Source of the DNA: Jimgerdemannia flammicorona
Lineage: Eukaryota
Assembly: GCA_003990765.1 (NCBI GenBank)
Contig: RBNJ01000252.1
Span: 1-35,416 of the forward strand
Direction: 5' to 3'
Length of the DNA: 35,416 nucleotides
The first letter of the stretch is position 1; each line of letters begins with the position of its first letter. Both the position numbers and the translations under genes were made by a program. The notes under the pieces are model-generated. The model saw only the letters and a program-made list of their open reading frames with translations. It was not told the origin of the DNA and made no database searches. This document shows positions 218-30,328 of the stretch, piece by piece.

Positions 218-219
218 AA

Positions 220-231
220 GGTTATGAGCCC
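220..231 (+). promoter_or_regulatory. Copia primer-binding site complementary to the anticodon arm of initiator tRNA-Met
   Basis: GGTTATGAGCCC is the reverse complement of GGGCTCATAACC, the half-tRNA priming site type used by copia/Ty5. Confidence 0.85.
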
Positions 232-289
232 CACCAGTACTAAGTAGCTATAGCAAAAACAAATACACCTCTTTAATATACACTATATT

Positions 290-3200
290 AGAAATATCAG
301 ACTAATATAGATATATATATCAATCATAAGTATTTCCACAGATATAATCTCAATAGATATGAGAAACACAGTCTTAGTTATAAGTATAAATATAGCCAAG
401 AGGTCTATTACAATTTTTGATAGGAAAGATTATGTGATTTGAGTATTCTATATGATAAATCTCCTTTATAAATATGGTTTAGTAGAGTATATAAAGCTAC
501 AAGCACTAATTCAAGATTATAATACTATAAATAATTACTGAGCATTATGCAAGATTGTATTTATATTATTGAATTTACAAAAAAAGCTCATAATATACAC
601 TATAATGGCTTACAAGATATGAGAGACTCTATGTAATTATCATTTATAAGTATCTATATTAAATCAATTCTATCTAAAATCTCAGTTATTTAATCTATAA
701 ATAAAGTCTAAGAAGAGTATCTGTAAATATATCAGTCATGTTAACAATCTGATAAATTAAGTGAATTCTCTCAGCATATTTATAGATTGTATTGATAATG
801 ATAATAAGATTATATATAATACCTACAAAAAGACTTCTAGATATATATAATATTATCATTATAGCTATACATAAGAGTAGCAGACTTATAAACTATATCT
901 ATATTTTAATGAGCATCATAAATAAGAAAATATATCAAGGAAATAGTGGTGACAATGATGAAAATGCCTTCTATAGATTCTGCAGACAACAATAAGGTCA
1001 ATAAATCCAAATTCAAAATTAGTACAATAATAACCAATCAACTAAATATAATAGTTATAATTAATACTATAGTAAGTAAAGATATAGGAAGTATAATTGC
1101 TATTACTGAAAAAATGACAAGGAGAGTGATAAAAGTAAATATAGTAGTTAGTATTGGTAATATAGAATTGGTAAAAAGAATTATTAAGGCCAAGAGAAGC
1201 ATGATAATACAAATACTACAGAAACTGATAGCAGTAGTATGTTTTTTATATAAGCAATATATATAGATTACAGTCTTATTATCAAATCCATCAATCTGTT
1301 ATCTATAAATTTCAATCAGCAGTAAAACACTTTTTACTTAATAAAAAGTAGTAATAATATCAGCAATGCCAATAGTGAAAACACCAATAGAGCAAACAGT
1401 ATACCTAGCTATATATCTGACAAATGTACTGTAAATATAGCCAATGACAATAATGTCTGACTCATAAATTCTAGAGCTATATAATATATAATACTATATA
1501 GAGAATAGTTCTCTATATATAAGCCTTTTAAATATTCTATACCTATCAAACTAGGCAATAATGAAATCATCTATGCCTAAGGAAAGAAAAATATAGAGAT
1601 ATATCTTTATAGTAATATATATTATAGAACTCACTGATATCTTTCTAGATATACTATATACTCTAGAAATTAGTAAAAATCTCTTTTTGATAGGCAAGAT
1701 AATATTCTCTAGCAATAAAGAGATATATATATTCAAAGAGTACAACAGTATATAATTTGGATAACAATAAGCTAATGATAGCCTCAAAATATAGTAATCT
1801 TTATATGATCAATAGTACACTGAATAGAAATAGTATAAAAGTCTCTCTATATATAATAACTATGTCTGATATATCTAATATATAGTATCAATACTTAGGA
1901 TATATTAGCAAATCAAGCCTTAAAAGAATGATCTAAAGTAGCTCAGTAAATAGATTACCAATATATATATATCTGGAGAATAACTTTTATAAGGTATATA
2001 TGGAAAATAAAGTATCTTAGCAACTATTTGAGGAATAATTAAAGTTCATATCTGAGATTCTTGACCTTATATATACATATACAGATATATATGGATCAAT
2101 ATATATGTACTATTATACTTTAGAAAGAAGTATTTTATTACCTTTATCAATAATTATATATGTAAAGTATATATATACTTCTTATTATTGAAGAGTAAAG
2201 CCTTAGATAAATTCAAAGAATTCAAAGTGTTTACTAAAAATAAGACAGAATATAAAGTATATATGATATGATCAGATAATGAATACAAATATATCAATGA
2301 TATATTTAAGTAGTTTCTGAAAAAATACAGTATATACTATCAAATGATAACTCCTTATATATATGTCTCAGAAAAATGGTATTCCTGAGCAATTCAACTA
2401 TATGATTATAGAAATAGTATATATGATGATCAATGCTATTAGATTAGGATATTTATATTAGGTAAAAGTGATCAATACTATAGTATATATATATAATTAA
2501 TATATATCTCAAGTACTAAGCAAGAATTCTAGCAATAATAAATATAGAGATAATGATCTTAGCTCTGAAGAATTATAGAGTAGATTTAAGCCAAATATAT
2601 TCCATCTATATATATTTAGATATAATATATATATTCTTGACAAGAGCAATATTAATCAGTATAAATTTAAGCTGAAAGCTGATAAGTATGTATTTCTTAG
2701 GTATTTCAGTAAGACTTATTAACTCTGAGATCTATATAAGTAGTATATAATTATTTTATATAATATATAGTTCAGAGAAAAAGGAATTCAAGATTTTACA
2801 TAGATGTACTAGTCAAGACATCTATATCTACAGTCTAGTTATTATAAATACAGCCTCTAAAGTAACTAGTACTAATCTCTCTAGTAGTTAATTAAAATTA
2901 TTTTCAACTACTATATATATCTAAGCTTGAGCCAGAGTTATCTGAGCTAAGAATAATGGAAATTAAAGATGAAGTTAATGGCAAAACCTCTAGTAATAAG
3001 AAATCCTCTACCTCTATGAAGAATAAACAAAAGTATTCTAATATTTACTAAGAAACTTATTCCAATTTAAGAAGTTATTATAAGTCCTAGACAGCAGTAA
3101 TGATAGGACTATGTGAGCTATACTGAAGTATACAAATATATATATATTATGATATCTTCTAGTAAGCCAAACATATATAATGAAGCTGTAACTACTAGTT

Positions 3201-3860
3201 CTGATAGTGAGAAACAGAAGTAAGCCATGAATGAGGAATATAATTTACTCATCAAGAATGATATATGGAATTTAGTGCCTCTTCTACCAAATTGCTAAAC
3301 AATTGGATCCTAGTGAGTCTATAAGATAAAGTACAATATCAATAGAAGTATAGAGTAATATAAAGCTTGTAAGAATATAGTATAGACTATGATAAGACAT
3401 TTTTATCTATATTCAAGCTTATATTACTTAAAATACTTTTTGTGATCAATATAGTATATAATCTTAAAATCTATCAAATAGATGTAAAGACAGTATTTCT
3501 GAATGATAATATAGATACTGAACTATATATATCAATTATAAGGATATAAAAATAGTGAGCTCATATATAAATTATATAAGAGATTATATAATATCAAACA
3601 AGTAGTATAGTTATAGAATTTATAAATATCTCTTTAATGATAGATTTATATATTGTAAAGCAGATAATTATATATACTCTAGTATTATAATAATAGTAGT
3701 ATAGTATTCATTGGTATTTGGATTGACAATATAATTATTATTATTAGTAAGAATAGGTTTAATAGAGTTAAAGAAGCCTTATACTGAGAATTCAAGATAA
3801 CAGATATAGGTAATATATTTTTTCTTTTAGAGATATCTATTATATAATAGAAATATATAT
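290..3860 (+). pseudogene. Copia gag-pol 5' part (gag, protease, integrase, RT N-terminal part), riddled with stops
   Basis: Reverted motifs: WLIDSGA (~1457-1480), WHQRLGH (~1882-1905), YFITFIDDY (~2131-2157), RSDNG (~2269-2283), QKNGIPERFN (~2369-2398), AMNEEY..KNDxWNLVPLP (~3225-3290), HQMDVKTAFLNG (~3472-3507), WIDD (~3719-3730). Confidence 0.9.
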
Positions 3861-3977
3861 TGTGACGTACACAATTGACAATGGAGTACCGGTGACTGCT
3901 AAGATCAGACGACATAATGGCATAACAATCAAATAGACAGCCTGACCCATTAGGTGATCATCCCAAAAGAAGACAAG

Positions 3978-5053
3978 ATGATCTGAGCCAAAATGAAGAC
4001 TATGTTATTTAAGGAACCATACTCTACCTCAAGGATTGGCACCAAAGAACCAAGTACCCACCATACAATGCCTCCCATTCGCCGAACCAACCAGACCTCC
4101 CGCTGCTCTATCCCTTTGCCTGGCCCAAAGACCCTGATCTTTGAAGCTATCAAGAAGGCCATCTGGTGCCCAGATACTTCCAAACACTTGAACTTCTACA
4201 CCGAGGACCTTGGACACTTCATCAACTACCAGTATATAATGACCCAACAGCTCAAAGACACTACCGAATGAATGACCCTCTGGCATGACTACGAAATCAG
4301 ACACTGCCTTTGCAATGAGACTCAAGGAGACAACCAGGAAGGCCTTATTACCGAATTGATAACCACTAGCCGGCTAATCAAGAGAGCCCTCTGTGTCCAC
4401 CAAATCTTCTGCCATATTCCCTGGGCTATAGCATACTTGCAAGGAGTAATAGCTGGTAGCCTCTCCTGCCTATCAACTGAAGATGCTGACTGGATAGAAT
4501 CCAAAGTAGCCAATGCTATTGGCAGCAACTGCATTGCTGTAGGAAGCCAACAAACTGAACCTACTCAACCAGGTTTTCACACCACCCCACTCCGAGATAA
4601 CCATCAAGGTCAGCTAATGAGTCTTATGGAGATATTTGAAGGACCACTCATTACCATAGAAGCACCCGTTGGAGCTACCCAACCACCCACCACCCTGTCA
4701 GCCACAATTCACATCTCATCATTTGGGAACCGAATCAAGAAGAAGCCCAAGAGGTCCCTGTCTTTAAAGAGGAGCCCCAAGAAATCCAAGGCCCTGCCCC
4801 TGAAGAAACCCCCTCTGATACTGAAACTGACGAATCTTCAGAAGAAAAAGAGGAGCAACAGAGAGTCTACCAGTCCTCTGTCTGCATTCAAGCTGTTCAA
4901 GGGTTGGAGAATATTGTTGAAGATGACTGGCCACTTTTCTACCCCCTCACCTCTTGGCCGGCGCTTCCCCCCTTTGAGGAGAGATATGATGAAGAAGAAA
5001 TCACAACCCAGCAAGATTTGCCTGCCACGGACGAAGGGTACTATTTCCTCTAG
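3978..5053 (+). pseudogene. LTR-encoded unknown protein, 5' LTR copy (CGA>TGA stops plus a 1-nt indel near 4680)
   Basis: ORFs 3993-4271 and 4272 onward share a frame. Their stops are CGA in the 3' LTR copy. The frame ends YYFL* as in the 3' copy. Confidence 0.8.
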
Positions 5054-5078
5054 AGTACCGCCCATCAGCTGTAAGAAC

Positions 5079-5322
5079 TTTGTCAGCAAGTCCATTTCCA
5101 GTGTTGCTACCCAGTACCACCATTTTCAGCATTTTGTCAGCAGGTCCGAATTCAGCGTTGCCACCCTCTACAACCGTTTCTGGCAACAATCATCATATCA
5201 TGTCAGCTCATCTGAATTCAGCATTACTACTCAGCACAACCATTTCCAGCATTGCTATCCAGTGCTGCCATTTTCAGCATTTTGTCAGCAAGTCCGAATC
5301 CAGCGTTACTATCCCCTACAAC
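5079..5322 (+). repeat. Imperfect ~54-bp tandem repeats in U3 (enhancer-like); copy at ~15253-15496
   Basis: tttgtcagcaagtcc...cagcgttgctaccc...ccattttcagcat recurs at ~5079, 5133, 5201 and 5281. Confidence 0.8.
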
Positions 5323-5441
5323 CCAATCCATAGTAAATAATAGCCTGCACCTCACATCATGCAAACCAATAGCATAAGTTTGCCACAACATAGTATACCT
5401 TAGCCTTAGTCATGCCCCCTCTCCCATAGCTAGCAAACTTG

Positions 5442-5473
5442 TATAAATAACCCATATTCTTAGAGTGAATAAA
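5442..5473 (+). promoter_or_regulatory. LTR TATA box (5442) and poly(A) signal AATAAA (5468); copy at 15616-15647
   Basis: TATAAATA and AATAAA are conserved in both LTRs, and the same arrangement occurs in the other LTR families of the window. Confidence 0.65.
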
Positions 5474-6177
5474 CCTCAGTCAATTGGTTTTGAGAAATAA
5501 CCACTGTCTCTAAGAGACTGGATAAATTCTGAGAACAAGATAACAACCTAGAGCAATGGATCACTCAGATGTTTGAGTTAAAGAATTTTCTCTTGCCATG
5601 GAAAGAAAACGTTACCTGACTGCCACATTCGAGACCGCCATTCGGACCACTGCATTTGCAGCCATTCGAGATTCAAGACCCCGAAAAGCCAAGGAACTCA
5701 AGGATACCAGTACCAGACCCGCCAGCTAGCAAGAACAACCACCAAGGACCCCCGTAAACCTGCCCTCAAGTTAACAAGTTAGATGGATGAGCGAGCTGTC
5801 AACCTCCATTTTCCTGATCTACTGCGCCACAAACTGCTTAAAGCCAAAACTGTTGTCGCTGAGTTTACCGCCAAGTTAATCACTGCCAGGAAACTTAGCC
5901 AGCATAATCGCCGCCCTTTTCCACAAAACAATTGAGCCATCGACGTCCTGAGCCATTGAACAACTAAGCGACCTCATCACCGACGTCCTGAGCCCACCAT
6001 TGTTGAACAATCTCCCACTATTATTACTGCACAAATCGAATGACCTGTCACGTGACCATCGACCCATAACCACCGCGAACGACACCAATGCCTTCAGATA
6101 TACATCACGCGCTTCACCAAGTGGCACACATTGAGCTGTACAGTTGAAGTTCATTATATATAACCAATGCCACATTT

Positions 6178-8030: not shown

Positions 8031-8719
8031 ACCAATCCACCCAGTCCAATGACAGAAATGTCAACCTCTTTCAGGTAGATGAAGAGACTCAGGAGATGGA
8101 AGAAGAAGCAGCCTGGCTCCATGGTCAAGAAGATGACATCTACCCATACTTCGAGGCTTTTCCATCCAAGGTGACATGGGAAGCTGCCCCAGCAGAGACC
8201 AGAGGATGAGGAAGACCATGAAGGAACCCCCCACCTCAACTGCTAGTAACAGTATCCACCGGCAAGCATCCGCGACATGGCCATTCTTCTTCAGACACTC
8301 CACAAGAACAGGAGAAGCGAGTTAGAAGAGATACTCCTGAACCAGAAGCCGGACTATCTAGGACAACCCCCAGCTCTACCCTGCCAGACCTTGAAGAAGA
8401 TGAGCATATGAGCATAGAATCTTCAGCTGATGAAATGCCCATCAGGAATGAGAGACTACACCCCAAGGGACCAAGACACCAAAGAAGCAGCAAGCCCCAT
8501 GCAGCAGCCTCACTTTGGGAACATATCCGCCTACAGAATGCTGGTCTTATAGTTGAGCAAGTCCTCAAGAATGCACCAGAGGTCAGGCAAAAATTCCTGA
8601 AGAAAGCCAAGGAAGATACCAAGAGACTTCCAGTCCAAGGACCACACACTCAAGAACCTAGCACTATCCACACAATTCATGAGAGCCAGCGACATGAACA
8701 TCAATCTACAAGACTCGCC

Positions 8720-9070
8720 GATGGAAAAGTGTATGGTGAAAATGCCAGAATTCTCGTCAATACTGGAGCAGCAGTATGCATCATCACCCAAAGGATATTG
8801 GAGCGAATTGGATGTGGAATAGATGAAGGAACCAAAGCAAGGGTTATCATGGCCAACGGATCAGCTTCCACACCCCTTGGACTTGTCAGAGACATCCCCA
8901 TTCAAGTCGGAAAGGCCCGCCTCAATGTACCCAAAGCCGTCATGACCCCCACAACCTCCTATGACCTGATCCTGGGAACTGACTGGTTAAGCCGAGTTGG
9001 AGCCAACGTAGATATCAAGAAACAACTCCTGGTCTTCTCCATTCATGGACAGAAGCACAAGGTGCCCATT
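8720..9070 (+). pseudogene. Gypsy A aspartic protease (catalytic D>N)
   Basis: ILV(N)TGAAVCII with AAT at 8759, and YDLILGTDWL, within ORF 8408-9781. Confidence 0.92.
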
Positions 9071-10179
9071 GACTCGAAAGGATCATCTAAAAGGACAAAT
9101 CAAGCCTCAGAAACAGAATGGCAAGGACATGGCGACACCCCTACCACTACTGAGGATGAAAGTGAGGCCAATTTCCTACAAGAACTAGGAAGTGATTTCG
9201 ATGCCCCAAGGGACCAAGAAAGTGAACAAGAAGACTCTTTCATTAGAGTTATTGGTGTTGAAGGCCTGGAAGAAAGCATTGATAGAGCCATTAATGCAAG
9301 GGCAGCACTCGAGTTTGCAGGACCTTCTGCTCAACCACCACCACTACTGGTAGAAAATCAGATCATGCGAGCCTTTCGTCAAGGCACATGTGAACACTTC
9401 ATCAGCTTCCACTCACCAAGAGATGACTGCAGCAATTGCCGAATCCTGGATCTCAAGAAGGTTCCAATACCAGAAATTGATGACAAGGATGAATTGAAGC
9501 AAGCACCATCCCATGGCCGAATACAATCTCCAACCCCAAAGACCTTCAAGAAGACCTATAAGGAAGGACAGAAGATCCTCGCCTGCCAAACATTCAAGTC
9601 CCTTACCATCGAAGGAGAAAGCAACAGCTCTTACACTATCACCCAGGCTCTCCAGATTACACAGCTCACCTATGACAGGTATCGGAAGAGATTCCCTACC
9701 AGTAGGGAGGTCAAACAGCAAAATGAAGACTTTGTCAAGAAGGGACATTGTGATTGTGGAAAAACCTTTACCTGCTACTAGTGCGAATATCGAGATGTTC
9801 ACCTCAGCGAAGATATCTACAAGAGCCGAGTCAAGAGAAAGGATCCCACCTTGCAAGAACCTCGAATTCGCTGGGCCTGTTGGAAGTGCAAAGAAATCAA
9901 CCACGAAGGAGATTGCAAGTTCAAGAGCAAGACCTCTATCTGGGACCTACCATTGGAAGTTCTTGCCATCATTCGCTGGTACTGTCGCCCTCATCAAGGA
10001 AAAGAAGGTGTCAACCTTGTCTTCATCCTTATGGAAGCTCTGGACCCTCTAGAAAAGACTGGATTCAATTACACAAGAAACTCAAAGATGGGAGCTCACT
10101 GGCCTTTCTTCAAACCAGAGTGCATGGACTTCTCACCTACAATGGCAACAGCTGAAGCACCATTTCTCAAAGCTCAACC

Positions 10180-10590
10180 AATTATCCAGATCAAGTTGCT
10201 TTCACCCTGGGCACAGCCACCTCTTGCACAAACAGAAGGATCAGTTGGTTATGACCTCTGTCTCCCCTACCAAGCAAGAATCTGGCCCAGAAGTACCAGG
10301 ACTTTTGACCTACAGATCGCACTCGCTATACCACCTGGGCATTATGGACAGTTGGCCTCAAGATCCTCATTGGCAACCAAAGGAGTCACAGTAGAAGGAG
10401 GAGTCATCGATCAGGACTACCGAGGTCCCTTGAAGGTCATCATCCACAATTCTAGTAGAACCAGCCAATTCTTCAGTCCCATGGAAGCCATCTGCCAAAT
10501 TCTGTTTATCAAGACATTACAGCTGACCATCCAAGAGGTAGACCAACTAGAAGATACCAACAGAGGACAAGGAGGCTTTGGAAGCACCAA
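10180..10590 (+). CDS. dut: dUTPase domain of the Gypsy A polyprotein (reading frame intact)
   Basis: All five trimeric dUTPase motifs are present: GYDL, SRSS, GVIDQDYRG, ICQ, RGQGGFGST. Confidence 0.96.
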
Positions 10591-11149
10591 TAGAAATCTA
10601 TGGACACCACTTATTGAGGTTCATTTGGCAACAGTTGCTCAATTCCGATAAATGAGACCCCATATCTGCCACCCAATCTGAGTAAGAGAAGACATCCTCC
10701 TGCAGCCCTACCAGCAAAAAGGCCTAGATGTGCACCTACCAGTAGAAGCAAACAACTTGATATTTGCACCATCACTGGAGCTTCAAAAGGAATACCACAT
10801 CCTCCTGGCTGAAGAACGAATTCATGACCAGATGTCACCAATCCACATCCCTATCAGAAACTCAGGCTTCGAAGTGATAACTATCCCCAAAGGAACAACA
10901 CTGGGATATTTCGAACCACTGATAGACACCTATGAGGAAGAAGTCTTCGAATTCTTGGGAAATGGCAAGTCCTCTCCGGTGAGACTGACAGTACCAGGGA
11001 GGAAGACTCAGCAAATTCAGCAATCAAAGCTGTCGACATCGAGACAACTCTAACCAAGGACCAGCAACAACAAATACAGGAGTTGATAGAGGAGTACAAA
11101 GATATATTTACCACTACATACGATAACTTCCCACCATATCAATACGGAG

Positions 11150-11975
11150 AACACCCTATACATACTGGAGATGCAAGACCAATCCGATAACAACCCTACT
11201 GAACACCACATCATCTGATTGAATTTGAACAACAACATATAGATGAAATGCTACAAAATGGAGTCATCAGACCATCATCAAGCCCCTGGGCCTCGCCAGC
11301 AATCATAGTACCAAAGAAAGGAGGATGGAGATTAGTCGTGGATTTCAGAAAACTCAACAAAGTCACCACAGAAGATGCCTACCCACTGCCAAGAATTGAT
11401 GACCTCATCAATGCCCTCGGAAAAGCCAAATATATAACCACTACCAACCAGTTCCAAGGATTCCAAGTAATATCCATTGCCAAAAAAGATATCTGCAAGA
11501 CAGCCTTCATCACCAGACGAGGACAGTATGAATACCTATGAATGCCCTTTGGACTCTGCAATGCACCCACCTCATTCCAACGAATGATGAACTATGTCTA
11601 CCGGGACCTCATTGGAAGAAATGTACTAGTGTACATAGATGATGTAATTATCTACTCTGAGACATTCAAGCAGCATTTACAAGACCTCTGTGAAGTATTT
11701 AATACCATTCAAAATTCAGGACTCAGACTCAATGCCAAGAAGTGCTTCTTCGGAAAACATCAAGTCGAATATCTGGGATATGTTGTCTCAGCTCAAGGAA
11801 CACATGCCGACCCCCACAAGGTGGAGAAAGTCAAGAACTACCCAACCCCGACCTCAGCAAAGGAGACCCTATCCTTCCTTATGCTAGATCCTATTATCGA
11901 CGATTTATCCCAAGGTTTTCAGATAAGGCAGCACCTCTCCAAGATATCTCCAAGAAGGACCAACCATTCTACTAG
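11150..11975 (+). pseudogene. pol: Gypsy A reverse transcriptase
   Basis: SPWASPAIIVPKK, RLVVDFRKLN, YPLPRIDD, MPFGLCNAP, YIDD (11632-11643), YLGYVV; one CGA>TGA stop and a frameshift near 11880. Confidence 0.97.
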
Positions 11976-12038
11976 AAAGAAGAACAACAAAAGTCATTTG
12001 ACCTACTCAAGAAGGCCCTTACCGAAGCCCCTATCCTG

Positions 12039-12425
12039 GTGCAACCAGACTTTGGCAAACCATTCATCCTGGCAACTGATGTCTCGGCCTTAGGACTTGG
12101 ATCAATTCTGTCTCAGCAAGATGACCAGAAGAGGGAGCATGTTATCGAATATGCTAGCAAGACCACAAATGAAACACAAGCAAACTATGGAGCCACTAAG
12201 TTGGAATGCCTAGCAGTAGTTTGGGCTGTGGACTACTTCTGACACTATCTCTTGGGAAAGAGATTCGCTCTCATCACTGACCATCAAGCTCTACAATGGT
12301 TGTTCAACAAGCCGAAGCCCTCAGGAATCTTTGCTAGATGGATTATGTCTCTGCAAGAATATCAGTTCACTATTGTCTATAAGAAAGGTGCTAAGAATTC
12401 CAATGTCAATACTCTGTCAAGAATC
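12039..12425 (+). pseudogene. Gypsy A RNase H
   Basis: FILATDVSALGLGSILSQ, LECLAVVWAV, LITDHQAL. Confidence 0.95.
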
Positions 12426-12689
12426 CCACGAAACCAACAAGAAGGGAAGGAGCCCCCACAAGAGAAGGCTACTTCCTGCTCATCCAAATGAACCAAGAAT
12501 TGTGCCTCACCCTCACCTGGAGTCTGCACCATAGAAGCTTCAAGAAAGGAATCCAACCAGCCCACAAGTTGTTTATCCAAAGGAATTTCAAGAAATTCCA
12601 AGAAGGTGATAGCAAACTTTGGAGAGTAGAGGGAGAGCAGTACACCTGAGTTCCAAGAGAAGAAGAAATATTGAAGATCCTGACAACAA

Positions 12690-14017
12690 ATTATGACCAA
12701 AATGCACACCGAGGAATTGGTGCCACAATTGCAAGAATCAAGAAGTGATACTGGTGGCCCAAGATGAGAAAACAAATTTCAACACACATTCAACAATGTG
12801 ATACCTGCCAAAGATACCGACAAAAGCCTACCGACAGAGCACCATTAATACTGATCGCAGCACCAGCTGGAGCCTTTCAAAGACTAGGAATAGACATTAT
12901 TGGACCCCTACCAGTATCCAGCTAAGGAAGATGCTACATCCTCACTATCGAAGACCACCTGACAAAATGGCCCAAAGCCTTTGCCATCGAGACTGCCAAT
13001 GCCCAGACAATTATTGGGATCCTGTATGATGAAATTTTCAGCCACCATGGTGTGCCCAAGGAAATCATTACAGACCAAGGCTGAGAATTCATCAACCAAG
13101 CCATGAAGACCTTTGCAAGTAACTTCAAGATCAAGCTATGACCAACAACAGCCTACCACCCACAGGCAAATGGACTCACTGATTGAATGAACCAGAGCAT
13201 CAAGCGAGGTCTCAGTAGAACCAGAGATCAACTAAACTGGGATATCTATCTACTGGCAATTCTATTCAGCATCCATACCTCTAAGGCAACTGCTACCCAA
13301 CAGACCCCCTTCTATTTAGCATATGGCCGAGAAGCACAAGATCCTACTGAACCAGTCCAGCTAGATCTGTCAAAGCGAGTCACAGAAGAGATCACCCGGT
13401 TACACGACATATGCCAGCAGGCACGAGGATTTATCGCCAAAGCACAAGAATGACAAAAGAGATACTATGACTGCAAAGCTGACCTTGAACCCCTGCTCAT
13501 TGGACAAAAGGTTCTGGTATACCATATCATCATAGAAGGAAATTGGAGTGCCAAGCTTGAACCAAAATGGGAAGGCCCCTATCTCATACACCAAGTATTC
13601 TCGAACCACACTTATCAACTCAAGACCTTGGATGGAGTTATACTCAAGACCAAGATACATTGCAACTGCATAAGACTCTACTACTCAAGAGAAGCAAAAC
13701 GCATTTGAACAATCCTGTTCACTCTGTCTGTGTCGTCTCTGCTGGAGATATGACGGATGTTTTACTTGGAACTCAAGAAAGCCAACAACGTTGGAACCAG
13801 ACTCAAGCCCATCCATATGACAGACATTGTTACTAAGAAATTGCCTCGGATTACAAGTAATACTATTTCTGATGGGTTTGAACCCCCAGCTGCAACTATA
13901 GGAGCCCTTGCCCTAGACAAGGATGGCCAGTCCTCACAAATGTGCCAGCATTCCACTCGTCCCTGGAGTCAAGACCACCCAACTCTGTATAACCCTCACC
14001 ACCGAGGACGGCTCTAA
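12690..14017 (+). pseudogene. Gypsy A integrase with a C-terminal extension
   Basis: CDTCQ zinc finger, GIDIIGPL, ITDQGxEF, YHPQANG, KWEGPY (GPY/F module); the frame continues past CGA>TGA stops to 14017. Confidence 0.92.
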
Positions 14018-14033
14018 TTTTGCAAGGGGCAGA
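14003..14033 (+). promoter_or_regulatory. Gypsy A polypurine tract region
   Basis: CGAGGACG...TTTTGC AAGGGGCAGA immediately precedes the TG of the 3' LTR. Confidence 0.85.
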
Positions 14034-16348
14034 TGTGACATACACAATTGACAATGGAGTACCAGTGACTGCTAAGATCAGATGACATAATGGCGTAACA
14101 ATCAAATAGACAGCCTTACCCATTAGGTGATCATCCCAAAAGAAGACAAGATGATCCGAGCCAAAATGAAGACCACATTATTTAAGGAACCATACTCCGC
14201 CTCAAGGATCGGCACCAAAGAACCAAGTACCCACCACACAATGCCTCCCATTCGCCGAACCAACCAGACCTCCCACCACTCTACCCCTTTGCCTGGCCCA
14301 AAGACCCTAATCTTTGAAGCTATCAAGAAGGCCATCTGGCACCCAGATACTTCCAAACACTTGAACTTCTACACCAAGGACCTTGGACACTTCATCAACT
14401 ACCGGTATATAATGACCCAACAGCTCAAAGACACTACCGAACGAATGACCCTCTGGCATGACTACGAAATTGGACACCACCTTTGCAATGAGACTCAAGG
14501 AGACGACTGGGAAGGCCTCATTACCGAATTGATAACCACTAGCCAGCTAATCAAGAGAGCTCTCCATGTCTACCAAATCTTCCGCCATATTCCCTAGGCT
14601 ATAGCATACTTGCAAGGAGTAACAGATGGTAGCCTCTCCTGCCTATCAACTGAAGATGCTGACTGGATAGAATCCGAAGTAGCCAATGCTATTGGCAGCA
14701 ACTGCATTGCCGTAGGAAGCCAACAAACTGAACCTACTCAACCAGGTTTTTACACCACCCCACTCCGAGATAACCATCAAGGTCAGCTAATGAGTCTTAT
14801 GGAGATATTTGAAGGACCACCCATTACCATAGAAGCACCCGTTGGAGCTACCCCAACCACCCACCACCCTGTCAGCCACAATTCACATCTCATCATTTGG
14901 GAACCAAATCAAGAAGAAGCCCAAGAGGTCCCTGTCTTTAAAGAGGAGCCCCAAGAAATCCAAGGCCCTGCCCCTGAAGAAACCCCCTCTGACACTGAAA
15001 CTGATGAATCTTCAGAAGAAGAAGAGGAGCAACAAAGAGTCTACCAGTCCTCTGTCCGCATTCAAGCTGTTCAAGGGTTGGAGAATGTTGTTGAAGATGA
15101 CTGGCCACTTTTCTACCCCCTCACCTCTTGGCCGGCGCTTCTCCCCTTTGAGGAGAGATATGATGAAGAAGAAATCACAACCCAGCAAGATTTGCCTACT
15201 ATGGATGAAGAGTACTATTTTCTCTAGAGTACCGCCCATCAGCCATGAGAACTTTATCAGCAAGTCCATTTCCAGCATTGCTACCCAGTACCACCATTTT
15301 CAGCATTTTGTCAGTCGGTCCAAATTCAGCGTTGCCACCCTCCACAACTGTTTCTGGCAACAATCATCATATCATGTCAGCTCATCCGAATTCAGCGTTG
15401 CTACCCAGCACAACCATTTCTAGCATTGCTATCCAGTGCCGCCATTTTTAGTGTTTTGTCAGTAAGTCCGAATCCAGCATTGCTATCCCCTACAACTCAA
15501 TCCGTAGTAAACAATAGCCTGTACCTCGCATCATGCAAACCAATAGCATAAGTTTGCCACAACGTAGTATACCTTAGCCTTAGTCGCGCCCCCTCTCCCA
15601 TAGCTAGCAAATTTGTATAAATAACCCATATTCTTAGAGTGAATAAACCTCAGTCAATTGGTTTTGAGAAATAACCACTGCCTCCAAGAGACCAGATAAA
15701 TTCTGAGAACAAGATAACAACCTAGAGCAACAGATCACTCGGAAGTTTGAGTTAAAGAATTTTCTCTTGCCACGGAAAGAAAATGTTACCCAACTGCCGC
15801 ATTCGAGACCGCTATTCGGACTGCTGCATTCGCTGCCATTCGAGATTCAAGACCCCGAAAAGCCAAGGAACTCAAGGATACCAGTACAAGACCCACCAGC
15901 TAGCAAGAACAACTGCCAAGGACCCCCGTAAACCCGCCCTCAAGTTAACAAGTTAGATGGACAAGCGAGCCATCAATCTCCATTTTCCTGACCTACTGTG
16001 CCATGAACCGCTTAAAGCCAAAACCGTCATCGCCGAGTTTGCCACCAAGTTAATCACTGCCAGGAAACTTAGCCAGCATAATCGCCGCCCTTTTCCACTA
16101 AACAATTGAGCCATTGATGTTCTGAGCCATTAAACAACCAAATAACCTCATCACCGACGTCCTGAGCCCACCATCATTGAATGATCTCCCACTATTATTA
16201 CCGTACGAATCGAATGACCTGTCACATGACCATCGACCTGTAGCCGCCGCGAATGACACCAATGCCTTCAGATATATATCACGCACTTCACCAAGTGGCA
16301 CACATTGAGCCGTGCAGTCAAAGTTCATTATACATAACCAACGCCACA
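14034..16348 (+). repeat. Gypsy A 3' LTR (2315 bp)
   Basis: Direct repeat of 3861-6174 with TG...CA ends. Confidence 0.97.
14151..15227 (+). pseudogene. LTR-encoded unknown protein, 3' LTR copy (328 aa from ATG 14241 or 358 aa from ATG 14151; one TGG>TAG stop)
   Basis: ORFs 14127-14597 and 14610-15227 are in frame. The separating TAG is TGG in the 5' LTR. The C-terminal third is acidic. Confidence 0.85.
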
Positions 16349-17200
16349 ATATATTATATATCTCTTATAAGTAACATATACTCAAACAATTCTCAAACAT
16401 TTCAATATAAGTAAATACAAATCCATTGATACTCTTATAGATACTTTTGTGAAGTTAAGGAAGCCAGATACTATATCTGAGGATAATAATAATATGTTTA
16501 CCAAAAATATTCCCTATTAATAAGTAGTCAGTTCTCTTATATATCTCATACTAGAAATAAGACCTAATATATTATATATTATAAATAAGGTAGTATAGTA
16601 TTTCTCTTGCTATAATAATTTATATTAGAGTATCATTAAGAGAATTTTCAGATATTTTAAGAGTATAGTATACTATATACTCACTTTAAGTAGATTGAGT
16701 AGAAGTAATAACAATAACAATACTATATAGCTATCTAGCATATATAATACTAATTGAGCAGATAATCTATATAACTGCCAATCTACAACTAGGCACTTTT
16801 TCTATATCAGTGACCAAGAGTCTATTATATCATAGCAAATATTTAAGCAATTATCCATAATAATATTATTAATATTAGTGGAATACTAAGTATTGTCAAG
16901 CATAATAAAGGAAGCTACATATTTAACTTTATGAGCTATTAAAAGAACTTAGATTCACTCAAAAATAATATACTATACTATGTCAGGATAATCAGTCTAT
17001 GATTATACTTATAAAGAATCTAGTATATTATAGTAGAATGAAATATATTAATATATAGTATCATTTTGTATAAGAATATATAGAAAATAGTACTATATAT
17101 TTAAAATATATCTCTATAGAGTATATGATTGTCAATTTACTTTTGAAAGTTCTTCTAAGGCTAAAGTTCAAGCAATATATTAAAGAAATAAGTTTTGTAA
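16349..17200 (+). pseudogene. Copia RT C-terminal part and RNase H, resuming after Gypsy A
   Basis: Reverted motifs: LSQxTY..ILKRFNM..CKPIDTPM, PYQxVVxSL.YL...RP, DWA.D...QSTTG, QDNQS, KHIDIxYHFVRE, MIAD.LxKxL. Confidence 0.9.
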
Positions 17201-17516
17201 GTGATTTATCAATATTTAGTTAATTTTAGAATACTTTTCAGACTATCAAAGGTCTCTTATATTATATATATTAATATCTCTCATCTAAGAGCAGATTACA
17301 TATATATATTATATTTATATAGATATTTCAGATATTATGAGTATTTTGGAATACTTTTTAATCTTTAAATATGGAATTTTATAAGAGGTTTTTTTTTTTT
17401 TTAAGTTATATGTAGTTCTAATTTTTACATATTTTGCATTGCTTTTTTATTCTAGTTTACATTTTTACTACTAAATTGTAGTCTTTTTTTATATTGTATA
17501 TCATATTGAATAAGAG

Positions 17517-17543
17517 TATTAAGATAGTAACTTATATATCAAT
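17517..17543 (+). repeat. Stub of the Copia 3' LTR, cut by Gypsy B
   Basis: Matches 92-119 and is preceded by a decayed PPT (ttgaataagag). Confidence 0.6.
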
Positions 17544-19091
17544 TATCATATAGTGGTCACTGAGTCTTTCAAATATATCAGATTCTCTTTAAGATATATC
17601 TCTTAGACTAACCATAAGTTTGTTATAAGCAAGTTCTTATTGGAGTGTCTTCCTAAGATCTTATAGTCCTCAAACTTCTTATTTTTAAACTGTCTTGTTA
17701 TCTCTTAGATTGCTTGTATGGAATTGAGAGTAAGTAAACTGAAACTAACTTTATTTCAAAGAAAATAAGAGAGGTATTTATACAAAATATAATATAATAA
17801 TTGCTAAGTTATAAAGCTAAATATAAATTCCAATAACCAAATAAAATACTGGAATACAGAAAACTATAGTTGTAAGTATAAGTTCAAGTATCTGTATAAA
17901 TGATTACATAAGTTCAGGATGTCAGTAGATTTTGATGATATAGAAAAAGGGTGTCAGAAGAATTTCTAAGTAACATAAGATCAGAATGTCAGAAGAATAA
18001 CAGTTATACAGAAAAAGGATACTGGTAGAATTCAGTGTTACCAAGAACTTAGAGCAGAATGTTCAGGATCATGGGGGCTTCATCTTCATCACTGCTAAAG
18101 GAAATGAGATCTACAAATATTTCATATATATCATATATTTTGCATACTTCATACATGTCATATAGAATGACATCATCACCAATGATATTATTATGTTTGG
18201 CAGCAGTGGGGGCTCTCCAATCTATGACATTCTCTTCTACAAAATAAGGAACAAATGTGGGGTCTTGGAGAGGTCTAATCTAGATACTGGGGCCTTAGAA
18301 TGCTGAGATCAATCCTTGCAGGAATTGATCAGGATTGTTCTCAAGGATGGAATTCCAGAACTCTCCTATCTCATCACTATTGAGAGTAATAGTGGACTGG
18401 GCTTCTGTGGCCACTATGGCCTTCAGTGCATTGATATAGTAGGCTGACAGTTTCTTGAAGTCTGAGATCCTAGTATACTCCAAGTTAGGGATTGACCATA
18501 GTATATGTCTAAAGACCTAATGAATCTTCTTAGCTATCCTTATTTCATATATATCTATGGAGATGATATCTTGTATTTCTTAGTGACTGGTCTGAGGGAA
18601 TTCCTGGCAGAGAAGATTTCCTATTTCATATTTCTGCTATATCTAGAGAAATTAGATAGCAATGGTGATCCTTGTTTCTATTTCATAGTAGTAGAGGATA
18701 TAATGATAGGAGTCACCAGTACCCAGGTTGAGGCTAGGAGTTCAGTCCTCATAGCTCTTATGATGTCTTGGAATATTCTTTTCTAGACTGAGGGGCCTTG
18801 GTGGTTTCTGGACCTTGAGGTTTGGTAAGTAGCAGATATTTGTTTATGATAAGTCTTTAGAACTATTTCTGTAAGCTTTGTTTGGGCTACTGCTACTGTG
18901 ATTTCTTGATCTTTCTTTTATATTCCTCAAGATATCTGTCTTGTGGTCACAATGACTCACAGTTAGTTATTATTACTCATATTATAGCCTGAGTGAGTCA
19001 TGCTATATGATCTTCTTGTGCTCTAATCTGGTAGCTTATAAGGAAAGGCTGTCTCCTGTGCTGATATCATCATTCTGAGGTCACCATTATA
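17544..19091 (-). repeat. Gypsy B 3' LTR (~1548 bp)
   Basis: The left end matches TGTCACATAG at 24780. The right end is inferred from the minus-strand PPT ttaggaagaaga|tataatg (decayed TGTAA) at 19092. TATA at 17782-17775 and AATAAA at 17755-17750 on the minus strand. Confidence 0.75.
18049..18839 (-). pseudogene. LTR-encoded unknown protein of Gypsy B, homologous to that of Gypsy A
   Basis: Manual minus-strand translation: KRIFQDIIRAM / PSLNLGTGD..YILYYYE / I*QKYEIGNLLCQE / RIAKKIH*VFRHILWSIPNLEY, then ORF 18295-18483. Stops are revertible and there is one frameshift near 18745. Confidence 0.82.
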
Positions 19092-19479: not shown

Positions 19480-21900
19480 GAGTTTATTTCTATATACCAT
19501 AGTAGGCAGTATGGTCCCTGAGAGTTTTCTAAGCTAGAAGATAGTTTTCTTGATATCTTTTATATAGAAGAGTCCTTTCCATTTGGGCTCTAGTTTTTGT
19601 GACTATGAGACTTCTACTATATTTTGATATAGTAGGACCTTTTCTCCAATTTGGATGGGTTTTAGGGTCTTGTGATTCTTTTCTACATTCTTTCTTATTA
19701 GTGCTTGTAACTTGATGATTTAATCTTCAGCATTCTTTCTGATTTGATATAGTCTTCAGATTTCTGAGTCAATCTGTCTCTATATTAGGTTTAGATTTGT
19801 GGCTGAGGTTCCATCAGAATCTTCTTCTCTGAAGAGCAGTTCTCTTGGGGTAAAGTGTATACTCTGTGACCATATATCTCATAGGACAGAGAGGGCAGTT
19901 GCAAGGTAGTTATCCCAATTATCATATATGTCTGAGATCTTTACCAGGATGTTCTTGAGAGTCTTGTTGATTCTTTCTGTCTGTCCATTTCCTTAAGAGT
20001 GGTATTCAGTGGTCTTGATATACTGAATCTTGTATTTCTGCTATATTATCTTATGAAATCTATTGACAAATTCTGTGCCACAGTCTGTGGTGATTTGCTT
20101 TGATATCTTGTAGCAGCAGATGATTTCTCAGTGCAGGAAGTCAGCTATAGAGAGAGCATTGGCTTCTTGTAATGCTCCTACTTCTATCTATTTGGTAAAG
20201 AGGTCTACAATAACAATAATATAGTAGTTTCCTGATAGTATCATGGGTAGTAGTCTAATGATATCTATTGTGATGTAGTGGAAAGGGATAGGCTCAATTC
20301 TTGATGACCTGGATATCTAGTCTTGCTGATCTTATTTCTGTTTTTAGCACTTATCACACTCTTGATAAATTGATACAGATCTTCTTTCATCTTAGGCCAC
20401 TACATAGTTCTTCTTACTTTGTTATATATGTTAATTCCTCTTAGGTATCCTTATTCATGTACTTTCTTCATTATTTGATACTTCTTATATTTGGATATTA
20501 CAAGCTTTCCTCCTTTTCTGAGTATGGTGTTGTCTAGTTCAAATTGTTTCTAAGTCCAGTTAATGATGGTGATAGTCCAGAGTTTGAGATGGTTAGACAT
20601 CTTCTGCTGCCCAAGATAGCTGATTAATATATAGTATAGCTCCTTATTCATATTGAATAGTCTTTATGGAGATGTTTTGGAGTATTCTTGAGAGTACATC
20701 AGTATTGGCATTGATTCTTCCTAAGTAGTACTTAACAGTACAGTTATACTCTTACAGCCTATAGATCTATCTGGTATATATTCCTTTGGAGTTCAGAGTG
20801 TGGAATAGCCAAGTGAGAGTGAAATAGTCTGTTTGAATAGTAAAGTATTTTCTAGCTAAGTAGTAGTGGAACTTCTCTACTATCCAAACTACTGCTAAGT
20901 ATTCAAGCTTATATAACTTGTAGTTCTGTTCTGTTCTGTGGGTACCTCAGCTTACATAGGAGATGATATATTCATGTCTATCTTTCTTCTGAGCTAGAAC
21001 TGCTCCAAGTCTTATAGTACTTATATCTGTCTGCAGGATGAACTTTAGATTCCAATCTGGTTTTCTAAAGATAGATGCTTGGGTTAACCTAGTCTTGAGT
21101 TCATTGAAAGTTTCTTGATATTTCTTAGTCTATTTGAACTTAGTCTCCTTCTTCAGTAGCTCATAGATAGGTGCTGCAATATTGGAGTATCCTTTGATAA
21201 ATCTTCTATAGTAGGAGGCCAGTCCAAGGAAGGCATGGACTTTTATAGCTATTCTGGATCTTAGATAGACTACAACAGCCTCAATCTTTATAGGGTCTAT
21301 GTGAATTCCAGTCTGATTGATGATGTGTCCTAGATAGGTGATTTCCTGAGCTGCAAACTTGTATTTCTTAGGCTTGATGTAGAGGTCATACTTCTTGAGC
21401 TTCTTGAGAGCCAGCTGTATGTGGTTGATATATTTCTATATAGTATTGCTGAAGATGATCACATTATCAATATAGATAAAGAGCCATTTTTCAATCTCAT
21501 TGCTGAAGACTCTGTTCATTATTTGCTAAAAACTACTAGGGTATTGCACATTCCAAATAGCATTTGTAGATAGACATAGGTGGCATCAAGTGTAATAAAG
21601 GCTGATTTCTCACTGGTATCTTGAGTAAGACCAATCTGATGGAAGCCTGAGAACAGATCTAAGATGGTGTAGTATTTAGCTTTGCTTCCAAGAGTGGTAA
21701 GGATTTCTTGAATATTTAGCAAGAGCTGCCTATCCTTCTTAGTGATTGCATTGAGCTTCCTGTAATTAATGTAGAGTCTTGGAGCAAACTCTCCAGACTT
21801 ACTTTCTTTCTTTGGAGCAAGGATAATGAGTGAAGCCCAGGGGCTGATAGCTTGCTAAATAATTCCAACTTCTTTCATTTCCTTGAGTTCTGCTCACAGC
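19480..21900 (-). pseudogene. pol: Gypsy B pol: RT (~21200-21900), RNase H (~20690-21060), integrase (~19480-20470)
   Basis: SPWASL, ILDLFSGFHQI, YID(N) at 21474-21463, ILQTD, ITTDCGTEF, QTERINKTLK, EPKWKGLF. Confidence 0.92.
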
Positions 21901-24776: not shown

Positions 24777-24779
24777 AGT

Positions 24780-25685
24780 TGTCACATAGTAGTCACTGAG
24801 TTCTTCAAATATATCAGATTCTCTTCAAGATATATCTCTTAGACTAATCATAAGTTTGTTATAAGTAAGTTCTTATTAGAGTACCTTCCTAAGGTCTTAT
24901 AGTCCTCAAACTTCTTATCTTTAAACTGTCTTGTTATCTCTTAGATTACTTGTATGGAATTGAGAGTAAGTGAACTGGAACTGACTTTATTTCAAAGGAA
25001 ATAAGAGGGATATTTATATAAAATATAATTCAATGATTGCTAAGTTATAAAGCTAAATATAAATTCCAATAACTAAATAAAATACTGGAATACAGAAAAC
25101 TATGGTTGTAAGTACAAGTTCAAGTATCTGTACAAATGATTGCATAAGTTCAGGATGTCAGTAGATTTCAGTAGTATAGAAAAAGAGTGTCAGAAGAATT
25201 TCTGAGTTATATAAGATTAGAATACCAGAAGAATAACAGTTATACAGAAAAAGAATACTGATAGAATTCAGTGTTACCAAGAACTTAGAGCAGAATGTTT
25301 AGGATTATGGGGGCTTTATCTTTGTTACTGCTAAAGGAAATAAGATCCACAAATGTTTTGTCTGTTTCATATATGTCATACATTTTGCCTGCTTCATACA
25401 TATTATATAGGATGATGTCATCACTGATGATGTCATCACATTTGACAGCAGCAGGGGCTCTCCAATCTATGATATTCTCTTCCACAAAATAAGGAACAAA
25501 TATGGAGTCTTGGGGAGGTCTAATCTGGATGCTGGGGCCTTGGAATACTGAGATCAATCTTTGTAGAAATTGATCAGAATTGTCCTTAAGGATAGGATTC
25601 CAGAACTCTCTTATCTCATCACTATTGAGAGTGATAGTGGACTGGGCTTCTGTGACCACTATGACCTTCAGTGCATTGATATAGT
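24780..25685 (-). repeat. Gypsy B 5' LTR, truncated; contains the C-terminal half of the LTR ORF (25285-25685)
   Basis: Colinear with 17544-18440; identity stops abruptly after ttgatatagt. Confidence 0.9.
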
Positions 25686-25687
25686 GG

Positions 25688-26200
25688 TATAATAATTTCA
25701 CAGTTATATTTAGTCTTAGTATATTTTTGCATCTTTTAGTTAGTCTTTTCTTATTATTTCTTGAATATTCTACTATATTCCACTACCTTCTACTTATTTA
25801 GAAACCTTCTCTCAGAGCCCAGACATCACTAGAACATTCTTGTCTTTCCTTAGTGCCAAGTATCTTATCTTAGCTAGTTATGAAACCTTTCAGAACATTG
25901 TAGAATAGTATTAGTCAGCTTTGCCAAGAACCTATTTCTTGATATTTCTCTTTCTTTCCAAGATTTTTCTGGATCTTTCTTTCAGATCATATATAAATAT
26001 CCTTGTTCTCTGCCTGAATAAAGCTCAGAATATTTTCTCTCAGAAATCCTTCAAGAATACTTGAATCTTTAAGTATCTCTTTGAGCTACTTTAGACCAAC
26101 TAGAACTTCCAGATTAAGCCACTTTCTCTTAAAGAAACTAGAACTATTATACTTGATAGTAGTGGTGTCATTATATCTTACCTTATTAAGAAACCTCACA
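25688..26200 (+). repeat. Probable solo LTR of a third family (~510 bp)
   Basis: Begins tataata (decayed TGTAAC), ends cctcaca; TATAAATA at 25992 and AATAAA at 26017; no TSD seen. Confidence 0.5.
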
Positions 26201-26365
26201 CAAATTCGGAAACCAGTCACAACCAGTCTCATGAATCCAAAATGAGTTATAAAGAGTCAGCCTATCAGTCAGATCTCTCTAGAGAAGCAGGAGAACTACA
26301 AGCTAGTATAGAGGACATGATTAATGCTATGGCCCACCAAATCTAAGAACTTTAAGTACAATAAT

Positions 26366-26506
26366 ATGGCCAGAGATCATCTGGCTATTTCCACAATAAG
26401 TGTATCAGTTGAATGGATATTTTCTTGTGATAAGAAGTTTGTTATACTAAGGAGATACTCTCTTAAAGCTGAGACCATTTAAATATATATATGTTTGAAA
26501 TCCTGA
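26366..26506 (+). pseudogene. hAT transposase C-terminal dimerization-domain remnant
   Basis: MARDHLAISTISVSVEWIFSCDKKFVILRRYSLKAETI*IYICLKS* is a decayed form of MARDxLAIPATSVxVERxFS...RRxSL..ETI...MCLKSW. Confidence 0.85.
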
Positions 26507-26712
26507 TAAAGCTCAATATCCTGATTTCAGCTTATTGTAACTATACAACATTGGACAGAAGAATGTTTAAAGAAGTTGAACTAGTTTAGGGAATAATATA
26601 GAATTAATTTTTCAATAAATATATCTCAGATTTGATTTATTATCTGGGGGGGTCAGATATATAGCAAGAGGGATATTGTGCTTCCAACAATCCAGCATAT
26701 CTGTATCTGATA

Positions 26713-26838
26713 AGACACATTTAGTAAAGTACATCTGGTAAGGTATATCTAGTAAGACATATCTGATATAGCACATCTGGCCTAGTGAATCTGGTATATC
26801 ACATCTGACATAGTATATCTAGTATAGTATGTCTAGTA
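26713..26838 (+). repeat. Nine imperfect 14-bp tandem repeats, probable hAT subterminal array
   Basis: Consensus about (t/a)agcacatctggta, located 200 bp after the transposase end. Confidence 0.75.
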
Positions 26839-26868
26839 ATTGGGCACTTCTGGCAATTGCACATGTCA

Positions 26869-27285
26869 TTTTCCTGCTCCCTATTTCTCATAGCTCTACT
26901 CAAAAGACTGCCCATACTCTTTTCTTGAGATGTAGTGTATTCTCTGCACTTTTTTTTTCTTTTTTATAGAGTCTTTGCTCTTATTGTTTTATTTTCTAAC
27001 TCTCTAATTTCTTGCAGCTCATTTTCTACATGCCTTGCTACTCAAAAAGGCTATCTATGCTCCTTACTCAAGATACTGTTATAATCATTCTCTGCACTTT
27101 TTTTTTTTTTTTTTTTTTTTTTTGAGGTGCCTTTACTCTCCCTGCTTCATTCCTTTGCTCTCTCCAATTCTTGTAGCTCAAAAAAGACTCTGATTCTTGT
27201 AGCTTGTCTTCAATATACCTTACTACTTTTGAGATATATTGTGGACATTCTTTATGTTTTTTTTTTTTTTTTTTTTTTTTTGAGG
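26869..27285. repeat. Three ~157-bp units, each ending in a long T-run followed by gag
   Basis: ctcaaaa(a)gac/ggc...attctctgcac(T)n recurs, with T-runs ending near 26967, 27123 and 27281. Confidence 0.7.
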
Positions 27286-29900: not shown

Positions 29901-30328
29901 ATATTATAATATACCTGGCTCAATGGAGGCAAATTACAAGGTTGGGGGTTGATGTAGTTTGGCTTAAGCCCCTAGTTACTTTGTTAAAAGTAATAAAATG
30001 TTCTCAATTATCTTTCTTCAGTAATATTCTAGTTATACAATCTTTTGGCAACACTTTCAACATAGTTTCTGGAGAAAAGCTACTAGTGTCATAGTAACCA
30101 ATAAGTATTCTGAGGTGTGTACTGGGCAGGGTGGCCCAGGTGCATTCAACTGACAGTATGTGAGGAAGGGCCCTGGCTTGGGGGGAAGCATGAGGGGTCT
30201 GCTGGCAGGAGGATGTAGTAGGGGAGGGAGCAGTACTAGAGGTCAGGGGATAGGGAGGGCAAGCTTTGTAGATAAGGTGAAGAGAGGTCAGCAGAGAGCT
30301 GGAGGGCTGGCTTAGGAGAAGCAAGGAG

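Follow-up and report, generated by a model that had tools for sequence, protein, structure and literature searches.

A probable accessory gene crossing into, or lying within, U3 of the long terminal repeat in dUTPase-bearing Ty3/Gypsy retrotransposons

Two Ty3/Gypsy retrotransposons that carry a dUTPase, here called elements A and B, lie on a contig from Jimgerdemannia flammicorona (RBNJ01000252.1, assembly GCA_003990765.1), the whole 35,416 nucleotides (nt) of which are referred to below as the window. Each element bears an additional open reading frame (ORF) downstream of pol that either crosses into U3 of the long terminal repeat (LTR) or lies wholly within it. We consider it probable, at about 0.78, that this ORF represents a genuine accessory gene of the dUTPase-bearing Ty3/Gypsy clade, the third after gag and pol, and that its product belongs to an undescribed protein family.

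Complex retroviruses have as one of their hallmarks accessory genes that overlap U3. The nef gene of human and simian immunodeficiency viruses (HIV/SIV) and the sag gene of mouse mammary tumor virus (MMTV) overlap U3 of the 3' LTR, and bel2 of foamy viruses is likewise a U3-overlapping gene. To our knowledge, accessory genes of this kind do not belong to the usual view of Ty3/Gypsy retrotransposons. LTR retrotransposons with extra ORFs, and retroviral genes that overlap U3, are already known; new here are the protein family, its tie to this Gypsy clade, and its placement across or wholly in the U3 of a retrotransposon. The ORF copies in the window, and the features that set their position, are listed below.

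14241..15227, plus strand: A-type ORF, 3' LTR copy, 328 codons plus stop, with one premature stop at 14595-14597
4068..5050, plus strand: A-type ORF, 5' LTR copy, with TGA at 4269-4271 and a 1-bp indel frameshift near 4679-4694
18049..18839, minus strand: B-type ORF, decayed full-length copy, with 8 in-frame stops, 1 frameshift (18744/18738) and a start ATG that is now ATA
25288..25677, minus strand: B-type ORF, C-terminal half in the 5' LTR, an open frame whose N-terminal half is absent
14024..14033, plus strand: A polypurine tract AAGGGGCAGA, which directly abuts the 3' LTR; the last pol frame stops at 14017
14034..16348, plus strand: A 3' LTR, ends TGTGAC...CCACA, with U3 until ~15645
3861..6174, plus strand: A 5' LTR, from the LTR-pair alignment
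17543..~18450, minus strand: B 3' LTR, whose 5' edge TGTCAG at 18449 lies inside the ORF, with CAAGAAAC just before it
24779..~25699, minus strand: B 5' LTR, from the LTR-pair alignment
15614..15647, plus strand: A core promoter/polyadenylation block TGTATAAATA-N18-AATAAA, with the 5' LTR copy at 5440-5473
17750..17784, minus strand: B 3' LTR block TGTATAAATA-N19-AATAAA, ~265 nt 3' of the ORF stop

The 3' LTR frame of element A (14127-15227) is open but for a single stop and contains in-frame ATGs at 14151, 14166 and 14241, so that it encodes 358 amino acids (aa) from the first of these and 328 aa from the last. At the site of the TGA that interrupts the 5' LTR copy (4269-4271), the 3' LTR copy reads CGA. 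The frame is placed in U3 because it ends 387 nt 5' of the TATA/AATAAA block (TATAAATA/AATAAA), as measured to TGTATAAATA at 15614, and since the polypurine tract lies upstream of the gene, the whole gene is in U3 and is present in both LTRs. The coding sequence lengthens the U3 of A to 1.6 kb. Base usage in the A-type ORF is heterogeneous over codon positions (chi2 52, p 2e-9), with a value near that of the protease ORF (chi2 48), whereas the remaining 1.1 kb of the A LTR has no codon periodicity (chi2 4.8, p 0.57). The chance that a 325-codon frame stays open at the given base composition is P = 3.6e-7, and the guanine plus cytosine (GC) content of the ORF, 48%, is close to that of the element (44-47%) and far from that of the flanks (21-24%). 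Among the metagenome variants listed (40 of 976 places), six fall within the ORF, at codon positions 1, 2, 2, 3, 2 and 3, a number too small to test codon positions, and the absence from the ORF of all 12 listed indels (of 36) is too weak to count.

In element B, the two LTR copies can be aligned only from ~18454/25699 onward, and upstream of this edge no alignment was obtained (local score 32, as against 26.6 +/- 3.1 for shuffles). Because the B LTR thus starts at ~18450, the N-terminal half of the gene is internal, and the gene straddles the polypurine tract and the U3 border, with ~130 codons in the internal region and ~133 in U3. The CAAGAAAC that precedes the TGTCAG of B resembles the CAAGGGGCAGA that precedes TGTGAC in A. 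The accessory gene differs in its relation to the LTR border but holds the same place, after a colinear pol, in both elements. The preliminary description of this DNA, made from its letters alone, had held that the two A LTR copies complement each other's stops to give an ORF of 328 or 358 aa in U3 before the TATA box, which alignment of the copies confirms. It had also placed the gene within the LTRs of both lineages. This stands for A and not for B: the copy at 18839-18049 does encode a colinear protein, as was claimed, but only its C-terminal half lies within the LTR.

The relationship between the two ORFs is evident at the protein level. A tblastn search of the window with the A frame (X at the stop) returned B at 18732-18283 with E=2.6e-4 and the other B LTR with E=0.011. 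A database search with a 156-aa N-terminal piece returned a single protein, P0002, which is 80% identical and stop-free. A HMMER profile made from the window pieces and P0002 gave nine matches at E <= 0.001 among 1.84 billion representatives, eight of them real and one a repeat protein, and a word-indexed profile search gave 13 matches. In total, 20 relatives from at least five lineages were obtained via two independent database searches plus cluster look-ups, and when length limits were lifted, neither longer nor fused versions turned up. Each of the 20 was predicted on an ENA or JGI metagenome contig, 567-4848 bp in length, and is annotated as 'hypothetical protein' at most; scans of metagenome and viral contigs did not recover the DNA of any of them. 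B pieces that had been left out of the profile were still colinear with it (E 2e-14, 1.7e-6, 1e-4 and 6e-3).

Intact forms span 247-342 aa. They comprise an A-type relative (P0017, 325 aa), B-type relatives (P0016, 271 aa; P0005/P0013, 247 aa) and a third type (P0007, 342 aa, on a 4.8-kb contig, plus P0006 and P0014); two further types are represented by P0020 and by P0011/P0015. The A 3' LTR copy is 78.7% identical to P0017 over 314 aa. The full-length B copy is 65.4% identical to P0016 over 237 aa (E 1e-88) and 80% identical over a further 30 aa, and the product of 25288-25677 matches P0016 residues 140-271 at 62.3% identity over 138 aa with no stops. Pairwise identity between lineages is 23-50%. 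By BLASTP, P0017 matches P0016 with E=4e-22 (33% identity over 206 aa, starting at residue 1) and P0007 with E=1e-27. The A-B identity of 33% in the core compares with 37% in the integrase core and 43% in RNase H. An MP(P/A).R start is common to three lineages, from which the likely start is 14241 in A and 18839 in B, where ATA now stands in place of the ATG. Four lineages have in common a C-terminal P.(V/I/T)LN(F/I) motif, and 19 columns are invariant over lineage representatives, including Y74, E75, H110, H115, P117 and F184-G186-P187. The combination of intact forms, protein similarity, an open frame, codon periodicity and enzyme-like conservation shows what we read as long-term purifying selection on the gene.

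The predicted protein has three parts. Its N-terminal 20-22 aa are basic, with a charge of +2 to +5, and rich in Ser, Thr and Pro. This segment leads into a helical core of ~150 aa that contains the invariant YE and HxxxxH, and the conserved features further include a helix with FWxPxLxDNPDQ...FxGP. An AlphaFold2 model based on 23 sequences renders residues 15-160 of P0016 as all-helical, with a predicted local distance difference test score (pLDDT) of 73-96 and a predicted template modeling (TM) score of 0.56; beyond the core it places a helix and a small hairpin at lower confidence, and the tail falls below a pLDDT of 50. An earlier structure model, of P0007 with 15 sequences, was discarded for its mean pLDDT of 43. 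The C-terminal tails of both types are acidic, with a net charge of -11 to -25 in the seven proteins examined, and are predicted to be disordered; the isoelectric point (pI) of the whole protein is 4.2-4.9. In all lineages the tail holds acid-flanked hydrophobic clusters (DDVI, DLISF, DLITF, DLIIF), and P.(V/I)LNF stands beside runs of Asp, Glu and Ser. No membrane anchor or myristoylation signal was found in the protein.

Searches for a known family or fold gave no match. None of the 23 alignment members matched a Pfam family, apart from a sub-threshold ATG5_HBR (PF20637) hit, with a top score of 20.4 bits (cut-off 21.3), that occurred in 5 of the 23, all B-type; this lead was dropped, as P0009 found no ATG5 chain in PDB at E <= 10. 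Env-like, GDSL and DEDDy Pfam families were likewise absent from the 23 members at E <= 10, and the profile had no match among PDB sequences. Foldseek returned nothing at E <= 0.001, its best hits having E 0.94 in PDB and E 0.16 in BFVD, where the top matches were all unrelated phage proteins. An exhaustive VIA fold search gave Z of at most 4.2, under the tool's stated noise level for helical models, and the ESM Atlas was uninformative (best feature scores 0.89 and 0.87; structure TM scores <= 0.39).

Several statements of the preliminary description about the protein are upheld by these results. The four A-B motif pairs it quoted all align as claimed, and the similarity exceeds chance by the tblastn value (E=2.6e-4) and the P0017/P0016 comparison (E=4e-22) given above. 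The 20 relatives in at least five lineages, with their intact forms and shared start, agree with its proposal of a conserved, selected gene of two dUTPase-bearing Gypsy lineages. That the protein was unknown accords with the lack of any described family in the Pfam, PDB, Foldseek and VIA searches, and the basic N-terminus, helical core and acidic tails of both types that it had envisaged reappear in the computed charges (-11 to -25 for the seven tails) and in the AlphaFold2 core. The searches did not bear out the kinship it had suggested with protein families of arbuscular mycorrhizal fungi, since all 20 relatives are from metagenome contigs and none could be traced to a named genome.

The ORF copies in the window are dead, broken by transition mutations. 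Transitions account for 152 of the 159 sites at which the two A LTRs differ; 53 lie at CpG, and another 51 adjoin a base that differs too. This near-pure transition decay fits methylation-linked CpG deamination in the host. In the older LTR pair of B (17543-18454 and 24779-25699), no CpG-context differences are left.

Several points weigh against a genuine, functional gene and the role proposed for it below. All four ORF copies in the window are broken or partial, and the differences between the A LTR copies are spread evenly over the codon positions of the ORF (17/16/12), which lends no support to selection, although decay subsequent to insertion would produce such a spread. The relatives are predicted proteins from contigs of 567-4848 bp; the databases contain called ORFs only, so that the intactness of these relatives is partly ascertained. 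The evidence as a whole consists of DNA contigs and predicted proteins. The B LTR border comes from the LTR-pair alignment, the DNA past the B 5' LTR being unrelated. As to DNA binding, three ParB-type helix-turn-helix cores occupied ranks 2-4 of the VIA search, but their Z of 3.7-4.1 is below noise and amounts to a hint only.

Two sets of direct repeats, located between the ORF stop and the TATA box, bear on how the gene might act.

15255..15507, plus strand: four imperfect direct repeats of ~51 nt in the A U3
17938..18032, minus strand: three direct repeats of ~27 nt in the B U3

The four repeats of A look like enhancer repeats. Three of the four open with TGTCAG (the copy at 15255 has TATCAG), the hexamer that also starts the B LTR (18444-18449); the B U3 repeats contain CTGACA, the complement of TGTCAG, on the element strand, possibly by chance. 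The block that runs from the TATA box to AATAAA has three matches in the window, where none is expected by chance. Metagenome contigs that hold a 60-nt stretch around it (15595-15653; 5421-5479) far outnumber those of its flanks, with a summed depth of ~680 as against 30-250 in run X1, and on either side of it, at 15595 and 15653, contigs break away. This 60-nt promoter core seems to be common to diverged LTR families.

The mechanism that we propose starts from a gene that sits downstream of pol and ends upstream of the LTR TATA box in both lineages, with the coding sequence crossing the polypurine tract into U3 in lineage B and the tract placed upstream of the gene in lineage A. Genomic RNA contains U3 only at its 3' end, so that the gene should need a subgenomic RNA, either a spliced one or one started at an internal promoter, which would terminate at the AATAAA of the LTR. 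The product may then be a nuclear regulator of the element's own LTR in the style of foamy-virus Tas, in which the core would bind and the acidic tail would activate. A Tas-like transactivator is our leading guess at function, and a tentative one; it is suggested by the structured core, the acidic hydrophobic tail, the basic N-terminus, fast divergence, the size of 247-342 aa and the U3 repeats. There is a slimmer chance that the lineage A LTR is a self-contained cassette, in which the first 200 nt of U3 would contain a weak promoter and would be followed by the ORF, response repeats, TATA box and polyadenylation signal. It is equally doubtful that every such LTR, solo LTRs included, supplies a trans factor that activates or shields intact members elsewhere, and no more probable that a shift of the polypurine tract from within the gene, as in B, to a position upstream of it, as in A, created the LTR-borne gene.

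Other roles for a real gene match the same data less specifically than the Tas-like one. The product might be an adaptor that works against silencing or steers integration, with its tail clusters docking host chromatin, SUMO or autophagy machinery as short linear motifs, in place of an activation domain. This is a minor possibility. The acid-flanked hydrophobic clusters are repeated in the tails of all lineages and, we assume, resemble SUMO-interacting or LC3-interacting motifs, and the elements suffer CpG-type deamination, so that a counter-silencing factor would be useful to them; such motifs are, however, short and common in acidic disordered regions, and the sole Pfam hint in this direction, ATG5_HBR (20.4 as against 21.3 bits, 5 of 23 members), lacks PDB sequence backing. 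Less likely again is a product that handles the element's RNA in the manner of Rev or CERV and serves nuclear export, packaging or translation of the unspliced form. If the gene is expressed by splicing, the unspliced RNA needs export, a task performed in the Cer1 element by CERV according to the available passages of its description (PMC10309623), and the N-terminus is basic. Splicing is hypothetical here, though, no RNA-binding family or fold was matched, and the protein is strongly acidic (pI 4.2-4.9).

The two explanations that deny the retrotransposon a gene of its own fare worse. A captured host gene or nested foreign insert, riding in the LTR as a passenger of no service to the element, would accord with the unusual length of the A LTR (2.3 kb) and with the capture of ORFs by LTR retrotransposons that is documented in the consulted part of PMC5408684. 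It is nonetheless very unlikely, for the gene is found at one and the same place in two lineages with LTRs that no longer align as DNA, its base composition is that of the element and unlike the host flanks, and all 20 relatives are on metagenome contigs, with no longer or fused form in the search without length limits. The lowest probability of all goes to a sequence without a function as a gene, either what is left after decay or an accidental frame, with a similarity that stems from shared LTR ancestry only. Every copy in the window is indeed broken, but protein similarity (E=4e-22) has outlasted DNA alignability, intact forms of 247-342 aa exist in at least five lineages, and codon periodicity is found in the ORF and not in the rest of the LTR. 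We therefore retain an accessory gene of the element as the best explanation.

As in the retroviral cases, the coding sequence follows pol, lies in or overlaps U3, and precedes the promoter (TATA at 15614 and 17784). The B coding sequence crosses the polypurine tract into U3, as that of nef does, and the A coding sequence lies wholly within U3, as does that of MMTV sag. All of nef, sag and bel2 are 3' of the structural and enzymatic genes, as here, the difference being that the carrier is a Ty3/Gypsy element without env. Viral proteins with sequence or fold similarity to the accessory protein were not found in Pfam, BFVD, PDB or VIA searches. A further analogy is with Tas (Bel1). The parts of PMC3798896 consulted locate tas and bel2 after env, describe expression of tas/bet from an internal promoter, and give Tas as a highly divergent protein of 209-308 aa with a DNA-binding domain and an acidic activation domain. 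The likeness extends to size (209-308 as against 247-342 aa), fast divergence, location at the 3' end, and an acidic C-terminal region that comes after a structured part; the repeats 5' of the LTR TATA box are, by this analogy, candidate response elements. No homology to Tas was detected.

Extra genes of other LTR retrotransposons offer a second comparison. By the relevant passages of PMC5408684, ORF3s typically arise from spliced messages, and those of bdelloid rotifers (Vesta/Juno/TelKA) occur in dUTPase-bearing lineages. Plant LTR retrotransposons carry aORFs, and the searched passages of the review that covers them (PMC7264820) contain no ORF inside an LTR. In excerpts of the respective reports, ORF0 of rice Retrosat2 lies upstream of gag and outside the LTR (PMC3485330), the Botrytis element BcGypsy1 carries an extra ORF, brtn (10.1101/2021.04.13.439636), and dUTPase-bearing fungal Gypsy elements have already been described (PMC2864245). 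Like the present gene, these ORF3 and aORF systems equip an LTR retrotransposon with an additional gene that is particular to its lineage and whose function is unknown or non-canonical. They differ from it in that the products described for them are of env-like, GDSL, DEDDy, coiled-coil or transmembrane type, and no such Pfam match was obtained here. Cer1 CERV of Caenorhabditis elegans is, in the accessible part of PMC10309623, a nuclear accessory protein expressed from a spliced RNA and without homologues outside its group. It is comparable as a retrotransposon-encoded accessory protein, but CERV differs in its rod formation, its Cys-rich region and its overlap with gag at the 5' end, and no similarity to it was detected. 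The literature that we searched holds no description of the present gene, which is not proof that none exists.

The results thus tie a conserved gene family without known relative to a dUTPase-bearing Gypsy clade of an AT-rich soil eukaryote, in which lineages A and B may represent two stages in the uptake of a gene into the LTR. Should the product regulate the LTR or counter silencing, retrotransposons would have in it an equivalent of Tas, Tax or Nef. In that case each solo LTR of lineage A would have to be regarded as a potential protein-coding gene, with a corresponding change in its annotation. The family also provides a name and a profile for ~20 orphan metagenome proteins.

The carrier elements stand in a very AT-rich background, with a GC content of 21-26% at 1-3860 and 16349-17542 and of 32-49% in the retroelements between. 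Both have the paired TG..CA LTRs, primer-binding site and polypurine tract of Ty3/Gypsy elements, and A has the corresponding pol order of protease, reverse transcriptase (RT), RNase H and integrase, within which it runs protease, dUTPase, RT, RNase H, integrase zinc and integrase core.

8408..13597, plus strand: A pol region, with protease, dUTPase, RT, RNase H, and integrase zinc, core and SH3-like parts, broken by stops

The A LTR pair, on the plus strand, is 93.1% identical across 2315 columns, each LTR being 2.3 kb long; a primer-binding-like, TGG-containing site follows 6174, and the target-site duplication is ambiguous in the AT-rich flanks. Element B, on the minus strand, has the dUTPase-RT-RNase H order of A, and its pol is colinear with that of A up to the SH3-like part of the integrase. 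Its LTRs are 88.9% identical to each other, with TTGGTGCC downstream of the 5' LTR, and their DNA can no longer be aligned with that of the A LTRs. Parts of element A occur in contigs of soil-metagenome runs and of one organism listed under a code, and the A protease ORF as a query found no named relative at E <= 1e-10. Contigs of all four metagenome runs leave the window sequence at 13769, 13809 and 13942-13951, some of them entering an A-rich stretch, and the last 250 nt ahead of the A 3' LTR seem variable among family members.

The rest of the window holds further repeats. The 1.6 kb between the B 5' LTR and the next element (25700-27290, GC 32-35%) are unrelated to both and contain short internal repeats at ~26939-27285. 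Related to B at 84% identity and truncated at both ends, element C (27290-29904) carries a locally inverted RT piece, in that 28154-28359 is a direct repeat of B 21528-21733, whereas the remainder of C is inverted with respect to B. A fourth retroelement, G-rich, occupies ~30000-35416, with a GC content of 46-48% and a plus-strand GC skew of +0.36 to +0.51, and its sole recognizable piece is an RT fragment at 33759-34148.

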